Source: Escherichia coli (GTDB taxonomy: Bacteria; Pseudomonadota; Gammaproteobacteria; Enterobacterales; Enterobacteriaceae). Taken from it: DNA of 64,000 nucleotides. Position numbers and translations under genes: made by a program. How positions within the stretch are numbered: the first letter of the stretch is position 1; each line of letters starts with the position of its first letter. The stretch lies in NCBI RefSeq assembly GCF_024502345.1, contig NZ_JALDNN010000001.1; one strand, 5' to 3'. Under the pieces are notes generated by a model. The model was not told the origin of the DNA. It worked only from the letters and a program-made list of their open reading frames with translations, and searched no databases. Positions 4,075 through 16,735 of this stretch are shown in pieces.

Positions 4075-4156
4075 TGTAGGCAGGATAAGGCGTTTACGCC
4101 GCATCCGGCATTTGAGCAGGATGCCTGATGCGACGCTGATAGCGTCTTATCAGGCC
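4075..4156. repeat. REP/BIME palindromic element
   Basis: Paired inverted REP-like units (ggataaggcgtttacgccgcatccggca / gcctgatgcgacgc...cttatcaggcctac) between cpxA and yiiM. Confidence 0.7.
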
Positions 4157-4169
4157 TACACTCCGGGGG

Positions 4170-12947: not shown

Positions 12948-13190
12948 TGCCGGATGCGGCACAAGTGCCTTATCCGGCCTACAGGTCGGCAACAGTTTTA
13001 GGCCTGATAAGACGCGACATCGCATCAGGCATTGATTGCCGGATGCGGCACAAGTGCCTTATCCGGCCTACAGGTCGGCAATAGTTGTAGGCCTGATAAG
13101 ACGCGACAGCGTCGCATCAGGCATTGATTGCCGGATGCGGCACGAGCGCCTTATCCGGCCTACGGGTCGTGCATCCGACAACACCGAATT
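12948..13190. repeat. REP/BIME cluster, roughly 100-bp unit present in about 2.5 tandem copies
   Basis: Unit ccggatgcggcacaagtgccttatccggcctacaggtcggcaa...gtaggcctgataagacgcgac...gcatcaggcattgatt repeated between rhaA and rhaD. Confidence 0.75.
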
Positions 13191-14040: not shown

Positions 14041-14355
14041 ATGATCCGCAAAGCCTTTGTCATGCAGGTAAACCCCGACGCCCACGAAGAGTATCAGCGT
14101 CGGCATAACCCCATCTGGCCGGAACTGGAAGCAGTGCTGAAATCTCACGGTGCGCATAACTACGCCATCTATCTCGACAAAGCGCGTAATCTGCTGTTTG
14201 CCATGGTAGAGATTGAATCTGAAGAACGCTGGAATGCGGTTGCCAGTACTGATGTTTGCCAACGTTGGTGGAAATATATGACCGATGTTATGCCCGCTAA
14301 CCCGGATAACAGCCCGGTGAGTAGCGAGCTGCAAGAAGTGTTTTACCTGCCTTAA
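14041..14355 (+). CDS. rhaM: L-rhamnose mutarotase, 104 aa
   Basis: [49 protein letters not shown]... Confidence 0.9.
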
Positions 14356-14361
14356 TGAGTT

Positions 14362-14390
14362 GCGGTGCCGGAAAATATCCAGCACCGCGC
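14362..14390. terminator. Bidirectional hairpin between convergent rhaM and porin gene
   Basis: gcggtgc-cggaaaatatcca-gcaccgc inverted repeat in the 40-bp gap between the two stops. Confidence 0.45.
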
Positions 14391-14395
14391 CTTCA

Positions 14396-15811
14396 TCAGA
14401 AGAAGTATTTAAAGCGAACGCGTGCGCCGTAACGGTCATCAGTATCATCACCGTGTTTTTTATCACCGTCGCTATCCAGAATGGAGTAATACGTCCCGAG
14501 GTAAATATTAAAGTTCTCCATATCCATCACATTAGCGAACTGATAAGACGCATGAATGGTGTGAATGGAGTACGTCCCTTCATCATCAATCCAGCAGTCG
14601 TTATCACAAACTACACCGCTGAATTCATCAATCTTATTGTGCGCGTAGATATAACCGAGCTCGAAACGTTTCCACAGCGCGTTAATCCCGGCAGTGAAAT
14701 CTTTCTCATTATTAGCATCTAAATAGGCGGTATTAAGATTAACCACAATGCCATTGTCCGGATCCGTTTTCAGGCCGTTCCAGGTCATGCTCATCCCATA
14801 GCCGGTACGATCGGACTGATCGACAAAATTACCCTTGCTATCGGTATAACCATAAGCATTATTTACCACGTTCGCTTCCATCGCTGCGGAAACGGTGAAT
14901 TCTTCCGTCGGCGACCAGGCAATTACTGGGCGCAGATAAGCAACATTTTTCTGCTGCTCCATATCGCGTCCATGATAATTACCGTCATTATATAAAGATG
15001 TTCCGTCTTCAAGTAACGTGTTTAATTCAAAATACCAGTTATCGAGTTGTTTGCTGACGAGGAAATTACCGCCAGCGTTAGAGCGCCCGCGGCCCTCTTT
15101 CATCATATAGATATAACCGCTGCCATCGTCATAAAGATCGTTCGCAGTATTACCGGAATGTTCAACAAAGGTATCCTGATTCAGCGGGAACATATCGTAG
15201 GCTTCAAAACGGCCTACTTTGACCTTCCAGTCGTTTTCTTTGCCAAAGAAGAATACCGCATCATCGATATTTACTGAACCGTGCATATCACCCAGCGGTT
15301 GTGCGGAGAACCCGGAGAAATAACCGTTGTCCATCTTTCGCATACCGTCAAAACCTAACAGAATACGACCATTGAGATTCCACTGTTCATTAGTGGGATC
15401 GCTATTCACATCAGCGTTGGTCATTGCCAGCAGGCCATGATTACTTTCCGCATCCATATTAAATTCTACGTCGCCGTAGATTTTTAAATCGCCATAACCT
15501 GAAAGCAAAAGATTAGGTGAGGTGGCATTTTTCTTTGCAGATTCCGCCGTTGCCTGTCCATTTACCGGCGTATTGCCCTGAGCGGCCTTAATTTCGCGGA
15601 TCTCAGCGGCTTGTTGTGTCTGCAGCTGTTTAACCTGGCTCTCTGCTTTTGCCGCCCGCATTTCTGCCGCTTCCAGGCGTTCTTCCAGCAATGCCATGCG
15701 TTGTTCCAGCAATGCCATGCGTTGTTCCAGCGTTAAATGCTGTGTTTTTGCCATACCGGTACTACATGCCAATAATAAACCGATGGCTAAAGATAATGTC
15801 GATTTTTTCAT
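14396..15811 (-). CDS. Putative outer-membrane sugar porin (ScrY/OprB-like beta-barrel) with signal peptide and N-terminal coiled-coil extension, 471 aa
   Basis: N-terminus MKKSTLSLAIGLLLACSTGMA (signal peptide), then heptad-rich LEQRMALLEQRMALLEERLEAAEMRAAKAESQVKQLQ, then Y/G/N/D-rich alternating segments and C-terminal ...RVRFKYFF typical of OM beta-barrels; SD aggga 9 nt upstream of ATG. Family assignment is from sequence features only. Confidence 0.7.
   Translation of the reverse strand: MKKSTLSLAIGLLLACSTGMAKTQHLTLEQRMALLEQRMALLEERLEAAEMRAAKAESQVKQLQTQQAAEIREIKAAQGNTPVNGQATAESAKKNATSPNLLLSGYGDLKIYGDVEFNMDAESNHGLLAMTNADVNSDPTNEQWNLNGRILLGFDGMRKMDNGYFSGFSAQPLGDMHGSVNIDDAVFFFGKENDWKVKVGRFEAYDMFPLNQDTFVEHSGNTANDLYDDGSGYIYMMKEGRGRSNAGGNFLVSKQLDNWYFELNTLLEDGTSLYNDGNYHGRDMEQQKNVAYLRPVIAWSPTEEFTVSAAMEANVVNNAYGYTDSKGNFVDQSDRTGYGMSMTWNGLKTDPDNGIVVNLNTAYLDANNEKDFTAGINALWKRFELGYIYAHNKIDEFSGVVCDNDCWIDDEGTYSIHTIHASYQFANVMDMENFNIYLGTYYSILDSDGDKKHGDDTDDRYGARVRFKYFF
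15685..15726 (-). repeat. Perfect 21-bp tandem duplication inside the porin coiled-coil region (encodes LEQRMAL twice)
   Basis: ccagcaatgccatgcgttgtt occurs twice consecutively (15685-15705 and 15706-15726), in frame. Confidence 0.9.
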
Positions 15812-16288
15812 TATTTACGTTCCCTGAAATAAAGGAGACCCTACGCTTTCCAAAAGGAATACGTATATAGAGAAATATAAGGTGTGCACTTTCGAATTTT
15901 TAATCCAACTTCAGCAGGCCGATGGATAGTATCCCGCCGCATAATATGAGTAAATCCGCTGATTTCCTGGAACGTGAGGAATATAACAATAGTGCCGTTT
16001 TTAACTAAATATCGTAAAAAATATTAGATATGATTCACGCTGACTCATAAGCCACAAATATAAATAACGTTTAGACAAATTATCTGAGACATTTAAACAT
16101 TCACAAAATCATTAAATAATAACTCTTTATTCACAAGATTTATTTTACCTACTAATATGTGCCTTACGCCGCAAAATTTATCCTTCACTCTGCTTTATAT
16201 TGTCACGACTTCACGACATATCCGCGCTCATCACAAACCCGCCCCGCTATTACAATTAACTGAAATATTTTTTCATGGAGTCCGATTA

Positions 16289-16735
16289 ATGGCAGCTCTT
16301 ACTGCAAGCTGTATTGACCTGAATATTCAGGGCAATGGCGCTTATTCCGTTCTGAAGCAGTTGGCGACAATGGCGTTACAAAACGGTTTTATCACCGACT
16401 CACACCAGTTCCTGCAAACCCTGCTGCTGCGCGAAAAAATGCACTCCACCGGTTTTGGTTCTGGTGTCGCCGTGCCGCACGGTAAAAGCGCCTGCGTTAA
16501 ACAACCGTTCGTGTTATTCGCCCGCAAAGCGCAGGCTATTGACTGGAAAGCCAGCGACGGCGAAGACGTCAATTGCTGGATCTGCCTCGGCGTACCGCAA
16601 AGTGGCGAAGAGGATCAGGTCAAAATCATCGGCACACTGTGTCGCAAAATTATTCACCAGGAATTTATTCATCAACTGCAACAGGGCGATACCGACCAGG
16701 TGCTTGCCTTGTTAAATCAAACCCTCAGCTCATAA
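16289..16735 (+). CDS. frvA: PTS fructose-like EIIA component, 148 aa
   Basis: Internal Met MAALTASCIDLNIQGNGAYSVLKQLA... of ORF 16157..16735; EIIA(Fru/Ntr) fold with HGKSACV. Confidence 0.85.
   Translation: MAALTASCIDLNIQGNGAYSVLKQLATMALQNGFITDSHQFLQTLLLREKMHSTGFGSGVAVPHGKSACVKQPFVLFARKAQAIDWKASDGEDVNCWICLGVPQSGEEDQVKIIGTLCRKIIHQEFIHQLQQGDTDQVLALLNQTLSS

Follow-up and report, generated by a model that had tools for sequence, protein, structure and literature searches.

A RafY-family glycoporin gene between rhaM and frvA of Escherichia coli, carried by about half of complete genomes

The gene between rhaM and frvA in the window analysed here, a 64,000-nucleotide stretch of Escherichia coli DNA (NCBI RefSeq assembly GCF_024502345.1, contig NZ_JALDNN010000001.1), encodes a RafY-family glycoporin (PF16966 Porin_8, TC 1.B.15) and not a porin of the LamB/ScrY or OprB type. 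It is probably an orphan chromosomal RafY glycoporin that forms a wide, weakly selective channel, is transcribed from a promoter of its own and has been lost from roughly half of strains. The gene is an ordinary accessory gene, already catalogued under the right family name: the exact 471-aa protein is present in NCBI as "carbohydrate porin", on 30 contigs. The O157 copy was named rafY2 in a 2016 paper; this name in O157:H7 is the sole mention found in the literature, which yielded no experiment on the protein. The finding itself matters little, since the protein was already in databases under the right family and noted in O157:H7 as rafY2. The minor new points are an extra heptad in the 471-aa allele, a CRP-like promoter layout and a covarying leader hairpin (Table 1).

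Table 1. Features of the porin locus, with positions in the window.
Feature	Position	Strand	Basis or remark
Spacer between the rhaM and porin stop codons, 40 bp	14356..14395		GC-rich inverted repeat GCGGTGCCGG..CCAGCACCGC
Segment absent from K-12, 1744 bp	14357..16100		blastn of the K-12 locus against the window
Porin gene, 471 codons plus TGA	14396..15811	-	ORF, ATG start, ends ...RFKYFF
Predicted 16-stranded beta-barrel, residues 100-471, C-terminal aromatic signature KYFF	14399..15514	-	
Long loop between strands 5 and 6, residues 202-247, L3 position	15071..15208	-	
Low-complexity linker from helix to barrel, residues 79-99	15515..15577	-	AlphaFold, ortholog alignment
Predicted periplasmic coiled-coil region, residues 25-78, ~7.5 heptads	15578..15739	-	Heptad register, AlphaFold helix
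21-bp tandem repeat, 2.8 copies	15673..15731	-	Tandem Repeats Finder, protein alignment
Signal peptide, residues 1-21, predicted cleavage GMA/KT	15749..15811	-	Read from sequence
Shine-Dalgarno region TTTATTTCAGGGAAC	15819..15833	-	Sole block conserved across genera directly 5' of the ATG
Leader hairpin ACGTATTCC-TTTT-GGAAAGCGT, 32-53 nt 5' of the ATG	15843..15864	-	Folding, pair counts
Candidate sigma-70 promoter: -35 TTTACT (15949-15954), 17-bp spacer, -10 TACTAT (15926-15931)	15926..15954	-	
Conserved CRP-like box TGTTATATTCCTCACG	15973..15988	-	TGTGA-N6-TCACA with 2 mismatches
frvA-proximal part of the gap, common to K-12	16101..16288		74% identity, binned

A sequence-only reading of this DNA had described a 471-aa protein with a signal peptide, a heptad-repeat region and a barrel-like body ending in KYFF, and all of these features were confirmed: the open reading frame is intact, and its product has a signal peptide followed by a helix of 7.5 heptads and a beta-barrel. 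The same reading had placed the protein with the ScrY/OprB type of porins and had proposed a profile search, a structure prediction and a presence/absence survey as checks. A carbohydrate-type porin with a predicted periplasmic coiled coil stood up to these; the family turned out to be RafY. Pfam Porin_8 matched residues 111-471 over its entire length (model positions 1-372 of 372; E = 9.1e-153, 509 bits) and was matched by 44/44 aligned relatives as well. The LamB profile (PF02264) gave no match to the porin even at E <= 10 and none in the 44 relatives, the OprB profile (PF04966) matched neither the porin nor any of the relatives, and a search against NCBIfam returned only two coiled-coil noise matches, both far under cutoff. 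Read by eye, the N-terminus (MKKSTLSLAIGLLLACSTGMA/KT) has the appearance of a type I signal peptide. The A/KT junction was conserved in 10/10 aligned orthologs, and AlphaFold pLDDT was <50 over this region. A lipoprotein signal (LLAC, residues 13-16) was considered and rejected because Cys16 is not kept in the orthologs.

The AlphaFold model (pLDDT 84, pTM 0.73) consists of 16 long strands preceded by a single helix spanning residues 28-78 (pLDDT ~90). It describes one chain; trimer formation, coiled-coil assembly and pore size lie beyond its reach. Sixteen strands is also the number that TCDB lists for the RafY family, as opposed to the 18-stranded barrel that is a feature of LamB and ScrY. 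The top fold matches of the barrel were 16-stranded trimeric porins, with ScrY and LamB scoring lower. Searching PDB sequences with the single protein and with a 44-sequence profile recovered no relative, which indicates that the RafY family is without a solved structure. The loop in the L3 position was non-strand in the model and its sequence (GRFEAYDMFPLNQDTF..GYIYMMKEGRGRS) was near-identical in 10 orthologs and RafY; by analogy with OmpF-type porins it is presumed to be the constriction loop. The linker between helix and barrel lacked secondary structure (pLDDT 36-40) and was the stretch that varied most among orthologs.

A single unbroken heptad register ran through residues 25-77, with hydrophobic residues at 13/16 of the a/d positions versus 45% in the whole segment. 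The Sugarporin_N profile (PF11471) matched the porin weakly, with E = 0.28 over the full 31-position model, and matched 4/44 relatives at E <= 0.001 and 12/44 at E <= 0.1 (best E = 5.9e-7). The tandem repeat within this region encodes LEQRMAL twice, which makes the 471-aa allele one heptad longer than the common 464-aa allele; an unbroken match to the three-copy repeat stretch was found in 0/5426 complete genomes. Apparent variation in coiled-coil length among 455- and 445-aa cluster members was discarded, being merely a matter of differing start-codon calls.

We confirmed that the porin gene is convergent with rhaM (14041-14355, + strand) and divergent from frvA, which starts at 16289 across an AT-rich gap of 477 bp with 34.8% GC. 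The spacer between rhaM and the porin gene contains a strong hairpin (70-nt fold, MFE -21.9 kcal/mol) that, judged from its sequence, is probably a two-way terminator; a simple terminator scan left it uncalled because it has no T run. In K-12 MG1655, rhaM and frvA are 300 bp apart and the porin is absent, in line with the expectation of the sequence-only reading that this is an accessory gene with no K-12 copy. K-12 carries 111 unrelated bases in place of the 1744-bp segment. A derivation of this filler from the segment was rejected (best local score just 20), and the absence of convincing similarity between the two means that the loss in K-12 was not a simple internal deletion. The flanking genes were 97-100% identical to K-12 by binned identity, versus 74% in the frvA-proximal part of the gap.

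Intact, full-length copies of the porin were carried by 2556 of 5426 complete E. coli genomes (~47%), and 2827 had an empty site that kept rhaM and the frvA-side junction. The two empty-site alleles were 88% alike, and IS1 insertions and truncations of the porin gene also occurred. The gene had been described as inserted between the rhamnose and frv operons, but comparison across genera argues for the opposite direction. At least nine genera and more than 25 species have an ortholog at this rhaM-adjacent site, the genera including Citrobacter, Kluyvera, Klebsiella, Raoultella, Enterobacter and Trabulsiella, the last with an identical frvA-porin-rhaM order. No E. albertii or E. fergusonii locus was present among the best 80 loci. 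Because orthologs hold the same site across genera, we read the empty state of K-12 as derived, and on this comparison the porin is missing from K-12 by loss, not inserted elsewhere.

The location between two sugar operons invites the explanation that a sugar-specific porin of the LamB/ScrY or OprB type imports a substrate of the rhamnose or frv (fructose-like PTS) system, and an N-terminal coiled coil like that of ScrY would fit. Adjacency to rhaM is kept in those >25 species, and the porin lies beside frvA in Escherichia, Trabulsiella and some Enterobacter. The profile results above nevertheless contradict the family assignment, and orientation contradicts the partnership: being convergent with rhaM and divergent from frvA, the gene cannot be co-transcribed with either. 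K-12 and the other empty-site genomes retain rhaM and its frvA-side junction without it. Conversely, E. coli S931B has lost frvABXR yet retains the porin with its entire upstream region, and in Citrobacter and Kluyvera a gene for an HTH-cupin regulator lies upstream of the porin, with frv not adjacent. In other species GH4/PTS, MFS/beta-helix or rafRAB cassettes lie between the porin and rhaM or beside the porin. The suggested role with the rha or frv systems thus found no support, the porin having its own promoter region; it is already largely refuted and we consider it very improbable. The only sugar genes repeatedly attached to the porin were rafR-rafA-rafB, which are alpha-galactoside genes; they adjoin it in Klebsiella, Raoultella and Enterobacter (loci L010, L014, L026-L028, L032, L033 and L037). 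The E. coli porin locus contained no raf genes.

We then compared the DNA upstream of the porin with that of its orthologs. Pairing of the small RNA MicA with the ribosome-binding region (7-nt complementarity) was rejected, as the required G is A in most genera. Per-sequence folding gave a hairpin at the same position in ~28/34 orthologs, with differing stem sequences. RNAalifold predicted no structure on a MAFFT alignment of 28 leaders because the stems are too divergent for sequence alignment, and the hairpin was therefore examined by pair counts with controls in addition to per-sequence folding. Its positions were paired in 68% of cases versus 53.6% in shuffles, with 52 double-change cells versus 21.9 and a covariation of 0.324 versus 0.176 (slid controls 0.09-0.17); the observed values were reached by 0/500 shuffles. 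Rfam contained no family match for the leader, giving one spurious sub-threshold miRNA match.

Further upstream, the CRP-like box was present in 24/34 ortholog upstream regions that were otherwise unalignable. In the window it is centred at -61.5 from the candidate sigma-70 promoter (box, 18 nt, TTTACT, 17 nt, TACTAT), and TTTAC (GTTACA in two loci) stood at a constant distance from the box in 18/24 box-bearing orthologs. CRP-consensus matches of equal quality occurred in the window at chance level (26 found versus 25.7 expected), so the evidence for the box is its conservation and geometry, not its match to the consensus. A consensus promoter scan of the gap found 6 promoters versus 5.3 expected and did not call the candidate, and a terminator consensus scan of the gap was at chance level. 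The upstream region likely has a conserved CRP-like promoter layout. Class I CRP-dependent promoters have their CRP site centred near -61.5, and a box in that position would imply control by CRP and, with it, catabolite control. Silencing of the AT-rich gap by H-NS could also occur.

These data also bear on whether a chromosomal raffinose cluster has been lost down to this one gene, now a silent relic that is unexpressed, useless in E. coli and itself being lost. Its absence from about half of genomes, the IS1 insertions and truncations, the missing raf partners and an AT-rich upstream region typical of H-NS-bound DNA would all be consistent with decay. The protein, however, is under strong purifying selection: dN/dS was 0.057 at dS 0.216 between the porin and a divergent E. 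coli allele, and 0.04 between the E. coli porin and its Kluyvera ortholog. The low value between E. coli alleles indicates that selection on the protein continued after the alleles split. With the Pfam match and the 2556 intact copies, it places the gene far beyond a chance ORF. The promoter box, the leader hairpin with its compensatory changes and the ribosome-binding region are moreover conserved in genera that likewise have no adjacent raf genes. We therefore regard a relic as quite unlikely.

The polymorphism could instead suggest that sugar uptake is not the main selected role, and that the protein serves as a coiled-coil envelope tether or that its distribution is driven by use as a phage or colicin receptor. 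An old polymorphism, seen in the 74% identity of flanking intergenic DNA between haplotypes and the 88% identity of the empty alleles, fits a trade-off. The length change in the 471-aa allele falls in the coiled coil, and periplasmic extensions also occur in OmpM1 and DcaP, two of the structural neighbours. Differences between E. coli alleles were, however, mostly synonymous and not visibly clustered in predicted surface loops, a pattern unlike receptor-driven diversification, and family members are consistently found in or beside oligosaccharide-use clusters. A tether or receptor role accordingly seems a distant prospect to us.

The orphan glycoporin reading leads to the following proposed mechanism. 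Once freed of its signal peptide, the mature protein would form a 16-stranded beta-barrel in the outer membrane, probably as a trimer by analogy with its structural neighbours. The near-invariant loop that joins strands 5 and 6 would reach inward into the lumen. The 7.5-heptad helix would project into the periplasmic space, and three such helices could assemble there into a coiled coil like those of ScrY and DcaP. Since the barrel and the L3 loop are near-identical to those of plasmid RafY, the same channel behaviour is expected, namely a wide, weakly selective diffusion channel for di- and trisaccharides (raffinose, melibiose, sucrose, maltose, lactose) that would give these sugars quicker passage through the outer membrane than OmpF/OmpC do. 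The porin would be transcribed alone from the promoter in the AT-rich gap with a leader of ~108 nt (start predicted near 15919), carrying the conserved hairpin just 5' of the ribosome-binding site. In E. coli it is an orphan, alone at the site, and roughly half of strains, including K-12, have lost the gene. A more elaborate version of this proposal, an independently regulated wide-channel "scavenging" porin that is catabolite-controlled, uses its structured leader for post-transcriptional control and has its presence and absence kept by a trade-off, strikes us as unlikely. If true, oligosaccharide uptake in the gut would be balanced against entry of bile, antibiotics and phage, and the length variant of the coiled coil would reflect natural adjustment of the periplasmic domain.

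RafY-type porins may also affect antibiotic entry, and RafY-type wide channels can alter carbohydrate competition in the gut. Since ~47% of E. coli carry the porin and K-12 does not, it is a reasonable and cheap knockout candidate. Counts of "rafY" in E. coli surveys combine this orphan chromosomal gene and the genuine porin of the raffinose operon; in one paper, rafY was reported from 45 isolates and a full raf operon from just 23.

RafY itself, from the raffinose operon of plasmid pRSD2 and chromosomal raf islands, belongs to the same family and shares the architecture of signal peptide, LEQRMALLEERLEAAE coiled coil, linker, barrel, CxxxC loop and RFKYFF end. The two proteins are 77% identical over 457 residues, the reference being the porin that follows rafR-rafA-rafB-rafD in E. 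coli E92 and not the pRSD2 copy. RafY is part of the raf operon, whereas the porin described here is a solitary gene between rhaM and frvA that has a promoter region of its own, and its identity to the chromosomal orthologs of Citrobacter (85%) and Kluyvera (83%) exceeds that to RafY. [quoted passage not shown]

ScrY and LamB are likewise outer-membrane channels for oligosaccharide uptake, and ScrY has a periplasmic N-terminal coiled coil as predicted here. The best structural matches were the 16-stranded trimeric DcaP of Acinetobacter baumannii, VhChiP, OprP/OprO, OprB and OmpF/OmpC, at just 8-14% sequence identity and with no homology detectable by sequence. DcaP carries an N-terminal coiled coil.

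Linkage to raf genes, a trait of the operon and not of the protein family, is absent in E. coli and present in the Klebsiella, Raoultella and Enterobacter orthologs. In Klebsiella and Raoultella, where it belongs to rafR-rafA-rafB-porin clusters, and in the porin/rafRAB arrangement of Enterobacter, the porin is a positional ortholog at the same rhaM-distal site, with 73-76% identity; the Klebsiella porin that ends rafR-rafA-rafB is 73% identical to that of E. coli. Porins of the Klebsiella type adjoin genes for an alpha-galactosidase, a LacY-type permease and a LacI-type repressor, whereas in E. coli, Citrobacter and Kluyvera the porin gene stands without them. GlyP of K. pneumoniae, assigned to the same RafY family, acts as a broad carbohydrate channel, and its derepression led to a fitness gain in a gut microbial community (bioRxiv 10.64898/2026.03.29.715108).

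Every sequence and fold test applied put the gene between rhaM and frvA in the RafY family. Residues 111-471 of its product match the Pfam model PF16966 (Porin_8, 'porin-like glycoporin RafY') at E = 9.1e-153 with the entire model covered, and no LamB or OprB domain was found in Pfam even at E <= 10. All 44 aligned relatives matched Porin_8 and none matched LamB or OprB; NCBIfam has no model for the protein. The sequence-only reading had the kind of protein right, but likened it to ScrY/OprB-type porins, and it belongs to neither the LamB/ScrY nor the OprB family. Its description of the gene itself was confirmed throughout: a 471-codon ORF with an ATG start and an N-terminal coiled coil, convergent with rhaM and divergent from frvA across an AT-rich gap of 477 bp (34.8% GC, with frvA starting at 16289). 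The product begins with MKKSTLSLAIGLLLACSTGMA/KT and ends in RFKYFF, and a single heptad register runs across residues 25-77 with hydrophobic residues at 13 of 16 a/d positions. Folding of the spacer between rhaM and the porin predicted a strong GC-rich hairpin. Mechanical ORF calling extends frvA to an ATG at 16157 (16157-16735, 192 aa), into poorly conserved intergenic DNA; the annotated frvA has 148 aa and starts at 16289 in all genomes examined.

Features of the porin gene, its surroundings and its predicted product
Feature	Position	Strand	Basis or remark
rhaM	14041-14355	+	40 bp between rhaM end and porin stop codon
Porin gene	14396-15811	-	ORF reading
Leader hairpin	15843-15864	-	32-53 nt before porin ATG
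Proximal promoter-like site	15874-15903		
Box with -35/-10-like hexamers (box-promoter unit)	15926-15988	-	spacing and conservation
Conserved box TGTTATATTCCTCACG	15973-15988	-	kept in 24/34 orthologous regions
Helix	residues 28-78		AlphaFold2, pLDDT about 90
Disordered linker	residues 81-99		AlphaFold2
16 long strands	between residues 100 and 470		AlphaFold2
46-residue non-strand segment	residues 202-247		AlphaFold2, between strands 5 and 6

No solved structure related by sequence was detectable with either the single protein or the 44-sequence profile as query. A single-chain AlphaFold2 model built on the 44-sequence alignment (mean pLDDT 84, pTM 0.73) contained both the barrel and the N-terminal helix that had been anticipated. 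The non-strand segment takes the position of constriction loop L3 in OmpF-type porins and is almost invariant in an alignment of ten orthologs and RafY; together with the 16 modelled strands, it points to a barrel of the general-porin type. The coiled coil resembles that of ScrY, and the Sugarporin_N domain (the ScrY extension) matched the porin weakly (E = 0.28) and was significant in four of the 44 relatives (best E = 5.9e-7).

The gene was present at 80% or more of its length in 2556 of 5426 complete E. coli genomes and a K-12-type empty junction in 2827, the two states covering nearly all genomes. K-12 MG1655 has no annotated gene in the 300 bp between rhaM and frvA, and the accessory status proposed for the porin thus stands. 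The proposal that it had been inserted between the rhamnose and frv operons has the event in the wrong direction. Positional orthologs with 65-98% identity, all convergent with rhaM, occur in Escherichia sp., Citrobacter, Kluyvera, Klebsiella, Raoultella, Enterobacter, Pseudocitrobacter, Superficieibacter and Trabulsiella, and the Trabulsiella locus (L042) has the order frvB-frvA, porin, rhaM as in E. coli. The porin gene has therefore long occupied the rhaM region, and it is the empty site that is derived. The loss was not a recent clean deletion. A 1744-bp segment (14357-16100) corresponds in K-12 to 111 bases with no convincing similarity to it, and the adjoining frvA-proximal 188 bp (16101-16288) are only 74% identical to K-12, against 97-100% for the genes on both sides. 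Empty sites come as two alleles (2134 and 691 genomes) that are 88% alike. The flanking divergence and the two empty alleles thus point to an old split between haplotypes with and without the porin, or to their exchange by recombination. Porin truncations or IS1 insertions are occasional: the gene is truncated or split by IS1 in E. coli HS30-1 (L002, 4001-4790) and in strain B18271 (H25), and HS30-1 retains only 75 bp of its 3' end and has lost the frv region through to fdhD. Elsewhere in the window, REP-like repeats of about 90 bp that match each other lie between rhaA and rhaD (12948-13169), with a related copy near 4076-4160; their copy number in that spacer differs between the window, K-12 and other strains.

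The neighbours of the porin do not bear out the suggested role in uptake of a rha or frv sugar. Upstream of the porin, Citrobacter and Kluyvera have not frv but an HTH-cupin regulator and then azlCD. E. coli S931B (L016, 4396-5303), whose DNA allele is roughly 94% identical, lacks frvABXR and the start of yiiG; its porin and the complete upstream region are intact, the latter joined directly to the truncated yiiG. Together with the porin's orientation relative to rhaM and frvA, this speaks against a partnership with either system. Its recurrent neighbours are raf-like genes. Klebsiella sp. B345, K. spallanzanii, K. grimontii, Raoultella terrigena and Enterobacter sp. JUb54 share the arrangement rafR-rafA-rafB-porin, with rhaM next on the opposite strand; other Enterobacter have opposite-strand frvBA, the porin and then rafR-rafA-rafB. 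Further species have at the same spot a cassette of GH4, PTS EIIC and a GntR regulator, or one of LacI, an MFS transporter and a beta-helix protein. Distant paralogs (56-63% identity) come after LacY-like and GH32 genes or stand last in an ABC/GH13/GH130 operon. RafY-family porins are thus consistently tied to oligosaccharide use, and the E. coli copy is an orphan. The LacY-like/GH32 loci were seen in Klebsiella, Raoultella, Erwinia and Rahnella (loci L076-L079, L085, L088, L090, L091, L094 and L095), where alignment begins only at query residue 35; the Buttiauxella paralog (L011) closes an ABC-transporter/GH13/GH130/DUF1861 cluster. Up to four RafY-family members occur in Klebsiella species.

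An orphan porin might be a decaying relic, a reading against which the substitution rates argue. Comparison with the divergent E. coli allele gave dS 0.216, dN 0.012 and dN/dS 0.057, and with the Kluyvera ortholog dN/dS 0.04; the gene is therefore under strong purifying selection. Most likely, Sec-dependent export is followed by BAM-dependent assembly of the porin as a 16-stranded, presumably trimeric outer-membrane barrel, in which the conserved inward loop would narrow the pore and the N-terminal helices would reach into the periplasm. It would offer a wide, weakly selective path for di- and trisaccharides, the role reported for RafY. GlyP, a K. pneumoniae member of the family, is described as having a larger pore than OmpK35/36 and as conferring an advantage in carbohydrate competition (bioRxiv 10.64898/2026.03.29.715108).

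The porin-frvA gap is mostly unalignable across genera, and three elements stand out. The box, TGTTAT[AC]T[CT][CG]CTCAC(G), is followed after 18 nt by TTTAC[A/T/G] in 18 of the 24 regions that bear it (GTTACA in two) and, 17 nt beyond the TTTAC-type hexamer, by TAnnnT; the window has TTTACT and TACTAT. The box corresponds to TGTGA-N6-TCACA with two mismatches, and the spacing would place its centre at -61.5 relative to the candidate promoter, the class I CRP position. CRP-consensus matches of such quality occur in the window at chance level (26 found, 25.7 expected), and the case for CRP therefore lies in conservation and geometry; another regulator is possible. A hairpin recurs at the equivalent site in about 28 of 34 orthologs, with stems that differ widely in sequence. 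In the 28-sequence alignment all ten named pairs had changes on both sides, and paired cells (68% versus 53.6% in shuffles), double-change cells (52 versus 21.9) and the covariation score (0.324 versus 0.176) reached values matched by 0 of 500 shuffles, with slid controls at 0.09-0.17. RNAalifold called no structure on this alignment and Rfam has no family that matches the hairpin. It may serve mRNA stability, translation control or as an sRNA site. The third element is the conserved ribosome-binding region, TTTATTTCA(A/G)GGAA. If the candidate promoter is real, the leader would be about 108 nt long in E. coli and 140-170 nt elsewhere; leaders that long are usual in porin mRNAs under post-transcriptional control. 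Transcription from the proximal promoter-like site instead would make the hairpin the first part of the mRNA.

In the length of its coiled coil, the 471-aa allele is a rare natural variant. A tandem repeat of 21 bp (15673-15731, 2.8 copies) duplicates LEQRMAL, adding exactly one heptad in register, and the protein otherwise differs from that of O157:H7 by two substitutions. The full-length matches listed from complete genomes were all 1395 bp (464 aa), and none of the 5426 carried the three-copy stretch in one piece. Database entries of 455 and 445 aa were rejected as shorter variants, being start-codon miscalls only.

Neither the gene nor its correct annotation is new. RefSeq labels it 'carbohydrate porin' in all E. 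coli genomes examined, its exact 471-aa sequence is in NCBI, UniRef and ENA (30 contigs), and a 2016 O157:H7 comparative study listed it as 'rafY2', a homolog of rafY that occurs without rafRABD (PMC4809568). In a GWAS, 45 E. coli isolates were reported to carry rafY, only 23 of them with a complete rafABD operon (PMC12987596), a count that probably lumps the orphan chromosomal porin with that of the true raf operon. Overall, porin kind and accessory status were read correctly from the sequence, and family, event direction and functional partners were not; the additions made here are small, namely conservation of the promoter layout, covariation in the leader hairpin, the age of the two haplotypes at the locus and the allele with an inserted heptad. 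One genuine chromosomal raf cluster of E. coli comprises a LacI-type repressor, an alpha-galactosidase, an MFS permease, a GH32 hydrolase and a porin. The RafY encoded there is 77% identical to the window porin, including the coiled-coil motif LEQRMALLEERLEAAE and the C-terminus, and the window porin differs from it in context, as an orphan with a putative promoter of its own.
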